Assembly: GCA_030827475.1 (NCBI GenBank)
Contig: JAUREJ010000002.1
Coordinates: 18,027 to 82,026 of the forward strand
From: Poseidonia sp.
Lineage (GTDB): Archaea; Thermoplasmatota; Poseidoniia; Poseidoniales; Poseidoniaceae
Reading direction: 5' to 3'
DNA: 64,000 nucleotides
Shown here: piece by piece, positions 58,517-62,453 of the stretch
Position numbering within the stretch: position 1 is the first letter of the stretch
Layout: every line of letters begins with the position of its first letter
Position numbers and translations under genes: made by a program
The notes under the pieces: model-generated
Databases searched by the model: none
What the model was told of the DNA's origin: nothing
What the model saw: the letters and a program-made list of their open reading frames with translations, nothing else

Positions 58517-58550
58517 AAACATGGCTGTCGGCCCTTTTGGAGGGCGAGGG

Positions 58551-59717
58551 ATGACTGGAGATGAACCGATGTTCACCGTCAACCGCTCCCATCTCAACAC
58601 TGGACTTCGGGGGATTCCCGTCGGCACCTGCCGCACATCGTTTGTGACGCCCACCGAGGGTGTTCACTACTGCGGGTACCCCATCGCGGAACTCGCCCAT
58701 TTCTCCCCGGAAGACATCGTCTACCTGCTGTTCAACAAGGAACTCCCAACCCCTGCGCAAGCTGAGGCCTTTCGTACCGATTTGGGGTCTCGGGGCGCCG
58801 TTCCAAACAGCGTCGCCGCCGTCTTCCACACCCTTCCTCGAGACGGTCACCCCATGGACTGGCTGAGCATCGGCATTCACACCCTCGGAATGCTGGACAC
58901 CACGGGGGATTGGCGGGAGGACGCTCTCAACCTCATCGCTCGTATGCCTCGGATGATGGCGCTTCTCTTCCGCATTCGTGAAGGTCGGGGCGAGAACATC
59001 CCAGAAGACGATCTTTCGGCTTCTATGGTTCAGCGGTTCGTACACACCCTCGACCTTGACGGGGTCGACCGAGACTTGATGGAACGCATTCTTGCCACTT
59101 ATCTCGTCCTTCACATGGACCACGGCGGCGGAAACCTCTCCACCTTTACTGGGAAAGCCGTCGCTTCCGGCCACGCCACGGTTTACGCCTCCATCGCAGG
59201 AGCGATGAACGCTCTTTCCGGCCCACTTCACGGACGAGCGAACCAATCTTGCCTTGAGTTTGTCCTCCGCATCGGAACGAGCGATCCCGACGAAGTGGAA
59301 GCCTTCGTTCGCGGTGAACTCGCTGCGAAACGCCCGGTGTTTGGTTTCGGCCATGCTGTTCTTCGAGCGGAGGACCCGAGGGCAACCGTTCAATTTGCCC
59401 TTGGGGAGGAACTTTGCCCGGACGATGAGAATTTCAAAATCATTCGCACGCTTCGCGAAGTCGCGCCGCGGGTGCTGTCCGAGAATCCAAAAATCTCGAA
59501 TCCAAACGCCAACGTTGACATCGCAAGCGGGGCGCTGCTCCACCACATCGGTTTCACCGACCCCACCTACTACACGACCTTCTTTGGTTGGGCTCGCGTC
59601 GCCGGCATCGGTGCACAAATCCTTGACGAACGCACCGTCATGCGAGGTGGAAAAGGTACGCCCATTTACCGGCCAAAATACATCGCCGAAGAACAGTCTC
59701 TGCGTCACCTTGAGTGA
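58551..59717 (+). CDS. gltA: Citrate synthase (or 2-methylcitrate synthase)
   Basis: GLRG, LHMDHGGGN.STF, ALSGPLHGRANQ, GFGHAVLR.EDPR, NVD, R..G. Confidence 0.9.
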   Translation: MTGDEPMFTVNRSHLNTGLRGIPVGTCRTSFVTPTEGVHYCGYPIAELAHFSPEDIVYLLFNKELPTPAQAEAFRTDLGSRGAVPNSVAAVFHTLPRDGHPMDWLSIGIHTLGMLDTTGDWREDALNLIARMPRMMALLFRIREGRGENIPEDDLSASMVQRFVHTLDLDGVDRDLMERILATYLVLHMDHGGGNLSTFTGKAVASGHATVYASIAGAMNALSGPLHGRANQSCLEFVLRIGTSDPDEVEAFVRGELAAKRPVFGFGHAVLRAEDPRATVQFALGEELCPDDENFKIIRTLREVAPRVLSENPKISNPNANVDIASGALLHHIGFTDPTYYTTFFGWARVAGIGAQILDERTVMRGGKGTPIYRPKYIAEEQSLRHLE

Positions 59718-60880
59718 GGGTGCAGGACCGGCCGTGATGTCTTGCCGCTTCCACGGTGACCGATGAGTCGGGGTGCAGACCACGGCGGTGTTGTTCCGTT
59801 GGCGGAAGCCAAAACCGATTCAAGGCTGCCCGACCATGACCAAGCCGACCTCCATTCTTCCACAAGTTGCCTTCGGCGCGCCACGTCGGCCTCGGCCCAC
59901 GTCGGGGTCTCGTTTTGCAGCTCTGCAAGAATGGTTTGATGGTCGTCATGTTCGGCCGATGCAAGCCGGTTCCATTGCTCATCGTCCAGGGGACGTGTTC
60001 CCGGTTGGTTCCATCTCGGATGTCCTGAGGGAAGCCATGTCAACGTTGGATCTGCATGGTCCGTCAATCCCGTCAATCCCGCTCGAAGCAGGTCGTGTTC
60101 AATCTGAGGTCGTGTCGGCCAAACATAGGTCGCCATGCCGTTGCGGTGACGGTCCAAACGTTGCCTTCCACCATCCCGGAGGCCAACCGCCCGTCCGAGC
60201 GATAGATGGCGGGTCCGTGAATGGAAATATTCCACGGCACACGGGAGCATTGAACTCCCCTGTTGTTCATGACGTCGAACGAGTCGCCGAAACGGCGTGG
60301 TCAGGTATTGCGGGAAGGCTTGCAACCGCTGTGTCGTGCGATTCCCGTAGGGCGGGATGTACGGTATCAACGCCGCCCACGGGCGTGAGGTTCCGGCCAG
60401 TGCAGCGGATTCGGGCATGCCTTTGTGAAAAGCATAGAACACCGTGTTTTCAACGGGTATGGCCCGTTGTTCCAACGCGTCTTCAGCGAGTCGCATGGCC
60501 AGAGCGATGTGTTCGTTGTGGCGTTGACGGCCAAAATAGCCTCCTCCTGGGGTGGCTTTGGGATGGGGTCGCTTGATTTCGATGCACCCCATCTTCCCCT
60601 TTTCCACCCATTGGCGTTGAACTTCAGCATCGTCAAGCAGGTCGTCGAAGGCAAGGAAGCCGAGGCCAACGAGGTCATCCAACGTCCATTCCTCCACCCA
60701 AGGCGATTTGTCGCTCAAATGAACCTTGGGAACCGAAACATCTCGATCGTGGTGGACGACGAGTTGGCGGTCCGCCGTCACCCGGATGTCAAACTCGATG
60801 CCGTCGAAGTGGACGATTCCATGCCGGAGGCTATTAAGCGTGTTTTCGGGGGCCTGGACCCACGCTTCAACCTCCTCCAT
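59705..60880 (-). CDS. Glycerophosphodiester phosphodiesterase (GDPD), circularly permuted
   Basis: N-terminus APENTL...DGIEFD.R.T.D..LVVHHD, IEIK, G..TD; the beta1 motif LIGHRG lies at the extreme C-terminus. Confidence 0.85.
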   Translation of the reverse strand: MEEVEAWVQAPENTLNSLRHGIVHFDGIEFDIRVTADRQLVVHHDRDVSVPKVHLSDKSPWVEEWTLDDLVGLGFLAFDDLLDDAEVQRQWVEKGKMGCIEIKRPHPKATPGGGYFGRQRHNEHIALAMRLAEDALEQRAIPVENTVFYAFHKGMPESAALAGTSRPWAALIPYIPPYGNRTTQRLQAFPQYLTTPFRRLVRRHEQQGSSMLPCAVEYFHSRTRHLSLGRAVGLRDGGRQRLDRHRNGMATYVWPTRPQIEHDLLRAGLTGLTDHADPTLTWLPSGHPRWNQPGTRPLDDEQWNRLASAEHDDHQTILAELQNETPTWAEADVARRRQLVEEWRSAWSWSGSLESVLASANGTTPPWSAPRLIGHRGSGKTSRPVLHPHSR

Positions 60881-60998
60881 GCGTTTGCATCCCGGCCTGC
60901 TTTCTCAAGGTTTGCTAGCGGCCGAGGGTGACGGAATCGGCCCGTGGCCAAACGCTCTTGCCCGAACGCATAAAACCGACATGTCCCGCCTCATCGCC

Positions 60999-62453
60999 AT
61001 GGACCCCTATGAAATCATGATGGGGATGATTTTGGTCCTCACGCCGGTTATTTGCTGGTATTTCACCCGCCATCAACCCGGCGAACGCATTCCATGGCGG
61101 GCTTGGGCGCAGGAATTTCATGACAAGCGCTACTACCTCCATGCCATGGGTTACATCGTTATTATTCGGTGGAAATCCATCACCGACAAACTGAACGAGC
61201 CCATGAAAACACGTACGGGACATTGGACCTCGTGGGTGTATGGCCTTGAAGGAGAATTCACGAAATGGGTTCAAGATGCCTTCGCCAATGACACCCTAAC
61301 GGAGTTCCTGAATTTTCATTACCTCTTTGTCTATCTTTTCCTGATCTATGTCACCACGGTCTATTTTGCGTTCACGGGCGACCGGGACATGACCGACAAA
61401 GTCACGTTGAACTATTTGCTCATTTATGCGCTCGCCGTCCCCTATTACCTGTTTTTCAACGTCGAGGTGACGTCTTCGTGGATTCCAGGCATGGACGCCT
61501 TGCTCTACCAAGAGGGCTGGTACACCGTCTTCTACGCCCTGCATGACCCGTTGGACAACGCCGTTCCGAGTTTGCACGTGGCCATCCCCTTCGGGATTCT
61601 TATGCTCAATTACCTCCATGTCAAAGAATCCGGGGAAACCCTGCGCACCTGGCGTCATTGGCCCTACCATCTCTTCGTTTTGCTCAATACGGCGTTGTTC
61701 ATGTTCACCATTCTCTATCTTGGAATTCACTGGGTCGTTGATATCCCCCTCGGCATCCTCATCGGTGCCATCGGAGCCTTGTTCATTCACCATCTTCAAC
61801 CGCGCCTTCGAAACGACTACGGTTCCTTCATCAAGGGATTCACGAAGGAAAAGATTCGTCGCCACATCTTTGTCGAAGGTGTGGTCATGTTGCTGTTGTT
61901 GACCACGATGCTGATGGCGGTCAACTATCAAGAGGAAACCGTTGACGACCGTGTTTCGTTCCGGCTCGGTTCTGGAGACAGCACGTTTGAAATCATCCAA
62001 AAGTTCGAGCCTGGTGACTTCGTCGTTTCAAACATCACCAATTTGAACGAGGGCGGGTTGCTTGAGGTCGTCGTCGTGATGGTTGAAACCAGCGTGCCTG
62101 CCATGGAAACCGGGAGCATCGATTGGGAGGTGATGCGGTCGTTGGGAGAACACCATACCGTCGCACCCCAAACCACCTTGAGTTTGAACATCACCTCGCC
62201 GAAAATCTACCACTTCATCGTGATGCACTACGAGGCGAACGAAGACCAAGACTCGGTGATGGAGGTCCGAATCATGAACGATTATGGCGATGATCGGATG
62301 TGGCAGGCGATGTTGCTGAGCCTTCCTTCCCTATGGATGACCGGCTTTGTTGTGTATCGCCTCTATCGCTTGAAGAAAGAAGGGCGAAGTTTCATTGATT
62401 CTACGCCTTCATATGTGTGGGCATCTCCCCCTTCCTTGGGAGAAGAGGCGTAA
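60999..62453 (+). CDS. PAP2 superfamily membrane enzyme (PAP2_3 / Aur1-IPC-synthase-like) with extra C-terminal domain
   Basis: NAVPSLH (C2) and YLGIHWVVD (C3) motifs; multi-TM; soluble beta domain flanked by TMs. Start could be 60981. Confidence 0.8.
   Translation: MDPYEIMMGMILVLTPVICWYFTRHQPGERIPWRAWAQEFHDKRYYLHAMGYIVIIRWKSITDKLNEPMKTRTGHWTSWVYGLEGEFTKWVQDAFANDTLTEFLNFHYLFVYLFLIYVTTVYFAFTGDRDMTDKVTLNYLLIYALAVPYYLFFNVEVTSSWIPGMDALLYQEGWYTVFYALHDPLDNAVPSLHVAIPFGILMLNYLHVKESGETLRTWRHWPYHLFVLLNTALFMFTILYLGIHWVVDIPLGILIGAIGALFIHHLQPRLRNDYGSFIKGFTKEKIRRHIFVEGVVMLLLLTTMLMAVNYQEETVDDRVSFRLGSGDSTFEIIQKFEPGDFVVSNITNLNEGGLLEVVVVMVETSVPAMETGSIDWEVMRSLGEHHTVAPQTTLSLNITSPKIYHFIVMHYEANEDQDSVMEVRIMNDYGDDRMWQAMLLSLPSLWMTGFVVYRLYRLKKEGRSFIDSTPSYVWASPPSLGEEA

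Follow-up and report, generated by a model that had tools for sequence, protein, structure and literature searches.

An apparently circularly permuted glycerophosphodiester phosphodiesterase across the archaeal order Poseidoniales

The gene and the order of its motifs

The reverse strand of the window (the whole 64,000-nucleotide stretch of Poseidonia sp. DNA analysed here) carries at 59705..60880 a gene for a 391-aa protein of the glycerophosphodiester phosphodiesterase (GDPD) family that appears to be circularly permuted, with the strand bearing its first catalytic histidine placed at the C-terminus instead of the N-terminus. The gene begins with an ATG start codon and ends with a stop codon at 59705-59707; the N-terminus of the protein reads MEEVEAWVQAPENTL and its C-terminus ...PPWSAPRLIGHRGSGKTSRPVLHPHSR, the end of the open reading frame (ORF) with its HRG motif being also given as ...PRLIGHRGSGKT... 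An earlier note on this DNA, made from the sequence alone, had claimed that the protein starts just before the PENT motif and lacks an N-terminal HRG, which is borne out by the sequence, by an upstream stop, and by a Pfam match that starts after the HRG of the profile. The in-frame stop named in that note is a TGA at 60905-60907 on the same strand, 9 codons 5' of the ATG, so that an N-terminal HRG strand would not fit; the intervening residues, read directly from the sequence, are E-S-R-P-G-C-K-R, and neither this interval nor the other upstream frames contain an HRG (sequence and ORF list). In most orthologues, too, the open frame reaches only about 8 aa upstream. The first catalytic histidine was correctly assigned to the C-terminus: it is His375, encoded by CAC (59758-59756).

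The remaining features follow one another along the reverse strand, and their conservation was assessed in two family alignments, one of 31 diverse sequences and one of 162 sequences whose members were picked for carrying the C-terminal motif. The PENT motif (P11-E12-N13-T14, 60839..60850), with only 10 residues before it and a nearly invariant N13, marks the canonical start of helix alpha1. It falls within the GDPD barrel body (residues 8-275, 60056..60859), which hhalign and Foldseek equate with canonical beta2 to beta8, minus beta1. Within the body lie E29-F-D31 (60788..60796), the predicted metal ligands on beta2, near-invariant among the 31 sequences and found in 160/162; H43-H44-D45 (60746..60754), wherein H44 is the predicted second catalytic histidine, invariant in the smaller alignment and present in 161/162 of the larger; and the ExK motif E101-I-K103 (60572..60580), which supplies a predicted metal ligand and a predicted phosphate-binding lysine, both invariant in the 31 sequences. 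The earlier note had thus been right to list E.D, HHD and EIK as present. A linker or extension (residues 276-366, 59783..60055) with four predicted helices then leads from where beta8 ends to the putatively relocated beta1 and its catalytic motif, R371-L-I-G-H375-R376-G377-S-G379 (59744..59770), an assignment based on invariance, a predicted strand at 372-375, and a rotated alignment. The C-terminal tail (K380-R391, 59708..59743) continues the canonical post-HRG loop; in the alignments its KT.RPV sequence is conserved in Marine Group IIa (MGIIa) and variable in Marine Group IIb (MGIIb), Marine Group II being synonymous with the Poseidoniales. As a separate observation, residues 374-381 (GHRGSGKT, 59738-59761) fit the Walker A pattern GxxxxGK[ST] and could mislead motif-based annotation. 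A P-loop nucleoside triphosphatase (NTPase) was considered and rejected, as the lysine and threonine are lost in many MGIIb orthologues, no NTPase family is matched, and the motif lies 11 residues from the C-terminus.

Hidden Markov model, profile, fold, and catalytic residues all identify the protein as a homologue of the GDPD family. The Pfam GDPD model (PF03009) hits residues 10-74 at 44.8 bits against a cut-off of 23.6, although only 62 of its 244 profile positions are covered (8-69); as the match starts at profile position 8, it begins right after the profile's HRG. Searches with NCBIfam models and PDB sequences likewise align only the PENT...HHD region, the canonical chains having approximately 20 residues before the aligned part. 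When the family alignment is compared with canonical GDPDs by hhalign, the match extends over the barrel as far as its last strand, GLTGLTD (98% probability; columns 13-278 of the query on columns 14-230 of 245 of the template). The complete catalytic set of the family is present, namely two histidines, an arginine, the Glu/Asp/Glu metal ligands, and a lysine. What departs from canonical GDPDs is the order: the HRG strand belongs at the N-terminus, 5-9 residues before PENT, and is found in this family 14-17 residues from the C-terminus. This departure is the permutation itself, a topological variant that leaves homology to GDPD unbroken. No Pfam family was found in the linker (residues 276-366), and the 391-aa protein gives the only PF03009 match in its genome. 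No signal peptide or transmembrane segment was seen by eye at the N-terminus (predictors were not run), and the protein is probably cytoplasmic. Public databases label the orthologues 'glycerophosphodiester phosphodiesterase (family protein)' or 'hypothetical protein'.

Conservation, rotated alignment and predicted fold

The same arrangement recurs throughout the order. Full-length orthologues of about 316-400 aa (30-76% identity) occur in 39/41 related genomes, in approximately 100 of the 103 Poseidoniales genomes of a class-level sample, where both families of the order are represented, and in all 48 Poseidoniales genomes of a phylum-level sample of 251. The full-length permuted family was not found outside Poseidoniales in those 251 genomes or among 1.84 billion representative proteins; beyond the order, the family profile gives only short matches (profile positions ~6-80) to ordinary GDPDs. 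A HMMER search of the 1.84 billion proteins returned 161 matches, including approximately 25 full-length clusters, all of permuted architecture, and canonical GDPDs scored E ~1e-4 at best. The motif order of the orthologues, which the earlier note had singled out for checking, agrees with that of the window protein: among 136 full-length family matches, which had not been preselected for the motif, 135 end in a C-terminal HRGxG (the exception has a scrambled C-terminus), and none of the 132 members with a recognisable PENT has an HRG anywhere upstream of it.

Only eighteen columns are invariant in the 31-sequence alignment, which reaches down to 30% identity, and these include H44, E101, K103, H375, R376, G377, and G379; E29, D31, N13, and D45 are conserved in at least 90% of the sequences. 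In the larger alignment H375, R376, and G377 occur in 162/162 sequences, G379 is invariant, and R371 occurs in 160/162. No stretch of the protein is more conserved than the C-terminal strand. A chance origin of the C-terminal HRG is ruled out by this invariance together with the 135/136 unselected full-length matches. Strong purifying selection is proposed to have maintained the protein as the sole GDPD of these small genomes.

When the C-terminal segment is put before the N-terminus, the Pfam match reaches profile position 1 (positions 1-69), and its score rises from 44.8 bits to 46.5 bits with a plain rotation and to 52.9 bits with a trimmed junction. Against a small alignment of canonical GDPDs, the hhalign score rises from 135.9 for the native order (E 7e-19) to 160.3 for the trimmed rotated order (E 1e-22). 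The trimmed rotated alignment is gapless (RlIGHRG|W.q.PENT against iiaHRG.....PENt) and recovers the canonical spacing of HRG, 5 residues, and PEN; with plain head-to-tail rotation, the local alignment of hhalign failed to cross the junction of approximately 20 residues, which only the trimmed junction did. Joining the termini and cutting anew therefore gives a collinear alignment with the homologues, as is expected of a circular permutation.

AlphaFold2 (AF2) modelling of the window protein, based on the alignment of 31 family sequences and free of templates, yielded a mean predicted local distance difference test (pLDDT) score of 91.6 and a predicted template modelling (pTM) score of 0.91. 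DSSP assigns strands to residues 27-34 (ExD), 40-42 (a hairpin before HHD), 97-102 (ExK), 146-150, 168-170, 212-215, 251-256, 270-273, and, at the C-terminus, 372-375 (L-I-G-H). The last of these forms part of a beta-ladder at pLDDT ~97 (block 371-380 averages 97) and stops at the histidine, as canonical beta1 does. Apart from this strand, residues 276-391 contain only isolated single-residue bridges; as a four-residue strand needs a partner that is itself a run of strand, the partner must be sought in the GDPD body. The body otherwise offers seven barrel strands and the beta2 hairpin, so that its free edges, beta2 and beta8, correspond to the canonical slot of beta1. From this DSSP pattern and strand count we infer that strand 372-375 neighbours beta2 and beta8 and that H375 adjoins H44. 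A model of the 316-aa orthologue P0137, in which the linker is only ~53 aa, has the same topology (pLDDT 91.6, pTM 0.90), with a C-terminal strand at 305-307 and block 301-310 at pLDDT 95. The expectation that AlphaFold would place the C-terminal HRG strand in the barrel next to HHD hence holds insofar as LIGH is a paired strand at pLDDT 95-97 in two orthologues; its position beside HHD is deduced from the strand arrangement. In Foldseek searches of the PDB with both models, all significant matches belong to the GDPD superfamily (probability 1.0, TMt 0.5-0.67) and comprise GDPDs, lysophospholipase-D relatives, and the GDPD-like domain of a glucanase entry; the named matches are 5T9B, 2OTD, 1O1Z, 3NO3, 3QVQ, and the archaeal 7E0V and 4OEC. 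The AF2 models thus have a (beta/alpha)8 barrel like that of solved GDPDs.

The gene is flanked on both sides by genes pointing the other way. The convergent citrate synthase gene (58521-59717, forward strand) overlaps its 3' end by 13 bp (59705-59717), and this pairing is conserved order-wide. The divergent neighbour (60981-62453, forward strand; listed as an ORF at 60726-62453) encodes a large membrane protein in which a PAP2 (lipid phosphate phosphatase) domain is followed by a long extension at the C-terminus; judging from where conservation among its orthologues sets in, translation likely begins at M86 or M92 of that ORF (60981 or 60999). Adjacency of the PAP2 gene to the GDPD gene is confined to MGIIa; the corresponding position in MGIIb is taken by an ORF of ~650-700 aa, which by eye only resembles a membrane or major facilitator superfamily (MFS) protein, with TatC beyond. 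Two further PAP2 matches occur in the genome of the window. On one metagenome contig in the European Nucleotide Archive (ENA), the conserved site beside the convergent citrate synthase gene is occupied by a 439-aa ORF (P0243; L036 270-1589) in which nothing of the permuted GDPD is left but its final ~90 aa (linker and ...PRIIGHRGAGSTHGV), fused behind an LRR_5-type N-terminal region. This ORF was found on a single contig and represents either the remnant of a rearranged gene or a chimeric assembly.

Alternative readings and the helical linker

Taken together, these observations are best explained by an order-wide circularly permuted GDPD, that is, a phospholipase C (PLC)-like TIM-barrel phosphodiesterase whose beta1 has been relocated to the C-terminus, a reading to which we assign a probability of roughly 0.8. 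The natural permutation of a TIM barrel proposed in the earlier note is accordingly supported by the orthologues, by the AF2 models, and by the gapless rotated alignment with its higher scores. The notion that a wrong start, a frameshift, or an error of sequencing or assembly has cost this gene a true N-terminal HRG is scarcely credible: the in-frame stop upstream, together with the same architecture in over 100 independent genomes and on numerous metagenome contigs, excludes it. A few orthologues are called with long N-terminal extensions (P0087, P0108), but these contain no HRG and would represent over-extended ORF calls into the divergent neighbour gene. Quite improbable, too, is the view that takes the C-terminal HRG for a relic of a truncated second GDPD copy, or an unrelated Walker-A-like motif, lying outside the barrel of a seven-stranded or otherwise altered and possibly non-catalytic protein. 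That view can draw on the match of G374-HRGS-G379-K-T to GxxxxGK[ST] in MGIIa sequences and on the fact that the barrel placement of the HRG strand derives from models; nevertheless, a relic is unlikely to stay invariant over an order-level radiation at 30% identity, the Walker-like lysine and threonine vary in MGIIb (GAGDTD, GCGESH, GSGASS, GTGSSH) while H, R, and G are kept, the invariance of the remaining GDPD catalytic residues points to an active enzyme dependent on its first histidine and arginine, and the HRG segment is a paired strand in both AF2 models.

A further unlikely alternative is a strand-swapped oligomer, wherein the HRG strand, borne on its long helical arm, enters the barrel of an adjacent subunit and the active site is completed in trans. 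The protein would then be permuted at the level of sequence, but its structure would be that of an obligate domain-swapped dimer or oligomer. The linker (53-103 aa) is far longer than a connection between alpha8 and beta1 within one barrel requires, it is well conserved and has many invariant Trp and Arg residues, as expected of an interface, and AF2 runs on a monomer are blind to the difference between cis and trans; on the other side, AF2 puts the strand into its own chain at very high confidence (pLDDT ~97, pTM 0.91), and does the same in the 316-aa orthologue with a linker of only ~53 aa. Several points weigh against a simple same-chain permuted enzyme and deserve to be gathered here. Closure of the barrel may reflect a bias of AF2 towards a fold that it has learned, and a monomer model cannot separate insertion into the same chain from insertion into a partner subunit. 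Covariation of the C-terminal strand with the strands of the barrel, computed as mutual information with average product correction (APC), was uninformative (162 sequences, effective number (Neff) ~74), because the C-terminal strand is too conserved, and the top pairs resemble phylogenetic noise. The gene neighbourhood shows neither a substrate clue nor operon logic, its PAP2 gene being limited to MGIIa. Lastly, the extent to which the linker exceeds what is needed to bridge alpha8 and beta1 hints at an additional role.

The linker itself is larger than first supposed. The earlier note had put the helical insertion at about 70 aa; the segment actually measures about 90-100 aa in the window protein (after GLTD274), with four predicted helices between residues 300 and 359 (300-307, 311-324, 333-347, and 353-359; AF2 DSSP, pLDDT 89-98), and conserved Trp and Arg residues are plentiful in it (R289, W290, W328, W343, W349). 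Measured from the ...TD motif to His375, the linkers of the family are 53 to 103 aa long. Linkers shortened by 20-50 aa occur in L029 and L035 (both genus g13), in L031 (genus g18), and in P0137, yielding proteins of 316-350 aa that keep the C-terminal HRG; these short-linker lineages are natural deletion variants and a possible guide to minimal-linker constructs. One may speculate that the Trp/Arg-rich linker serves as an interfacial or lipid-binding element or as an oligomer interface. It is conceivable, if doubtful, that the strand on its helical arm inserts reversibly or into a partner subunit, such that barrel closure and the delivery of His375 and Arg376 are coupled to oligomerisation or to membrane or lipid docking. 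Were this true, the enzyme would be a switchable GDPD whose substrates are the head groups of archaeal membrane lipids.

Proposed activity, origin and comparison with known systems

For the permuted GDPD with its strand inserted in the same chain, an arrangement of the active site can be proposed. The chain would start in the loop that follows canonical beta1 (W7...PENT), proceed through beta2-beta8 (residues 8-275) and a 50-100-aa, mostly helical linker, and finish with R-L-I-G-H375-R376-G. This terminal strand would insert between beta2 and beta8 of its own barrel and close it, bringing His375 and Arg376 beside E29/D31/E101, H44, and K103. H375 and H44 are predicted to form the general acid/base pair, R376 and K103 to bind the phosphate, and E29, D31, and E101 to bind a divalent metal. 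By analogy with canonical GDPDs, a glycerophosphodiester or the head-group diester of a lyso-phospholipid would be converted to glycerol phosphate and an alcohol. As every GDPD catalytic residue is invariant, the permuted GDPD is most likely active as a divalent-metal-dependent phosphodiesterase.

A single origin in the ancestor of the Poseidoniales is proposed. The most likely route would be tandem duplication and fusion of a canonical GDPD gene followed by loss of the outer parts, with the cut falling inside the beta1-alpha1 loop. The C-terminal tail (HRG-SGKT.RPV) and the N-terminus (W.QAPENT) look like the two halves of one loop, which fits duplication and fusion with truncation at both ends; none of the sequences collected is an intermediate with an HRG at each terminus. 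The nearest taxonomic neighbours with a GDPD are found in a sister order of the same class (L030, L033, L034). Their enzymes are canonical proteins of ~240 aa that begin ...IISHRG(x7-9)P[ED]N, possess neither a C-terminal HRG nor the linker, and share the EFDVR..HHD/FHD motifs. They resemble the Poseidoniales family only weakly (E 1e-6 to 1e-9 over profile positions 6-52), and a direct ancestor-descendant link is thus not demonstrable. Within that sister order, canonical GDPDs were seen in one genus, and other genera gave no match.

The permuted GDPD is of practical as well as evolutionary relevance. It is a single-copy, near-universal marker of the Poseidoniales, which are among the most abundant archaea in the surface ocean, and, being their only GDPD, it likely matters for their phospholipid or organic-phosphorus metabolism. 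Since domain models extend over only about a quarter of the protein and leave out the catalytic histidine and arginine, automated annotation records it as a partial GDPD or a hypothetical protein. A full-text literature search found no paper on a permuted GDPD or on a GDPD from Marine Group II, and the Poseidoniales protein appears to be a natural, hitherto undescribed rearrangement of a familiar enzyme fold, not an error.

With canonical GDPDs (PF03009; the UgpQ-type 2OTD, Thermotoga maritima 1O1Z, Bacillus subtilis GlpQ 5T9B, O. antarctica 3QVQ, and the archaeal 7E0V and 4OEC), the permuted family shares the TIM-barrel fold and all of the motifs, namely HRG, PENT, ExD, HD, ExK, and the terminal ..TD strand. 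It differs from them in carrying beta1 and HRG at the C-terminus behind a helical linker of 50-100 aa, in being ~150 aa longer, and in its low sequence similarity (62/244 Pfam positions; E ~1e-4 in 1.84 billion proteins).

To our knowledge, natural circular permutations of TIM barrels are few. GH70 glucansucrases and GH13 alpha-amylases are related by one such permutation of the (beta/alpha)8 barrel. Transaldolase and the class I aldolases likewise represent naturally permuted (beta/alpha)8 barrels (PMC2213659). In both cases, as in the permuted GDPD, the barrel and the active site are conserved and the termini are relocated. The permuted GDPD differs from these precedents in belonging to another superfamily, in having moved a single strand (beta1) instead of two or more beta/alpha units, in its cut, which lies in the active-site loop (HRG | PENT), and in the addition of a large new linker domain. 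With an active-site strand moved by ~370 residues, it offers a clean natural experiment on the folding order of the barrel and on the evolution of permutations.

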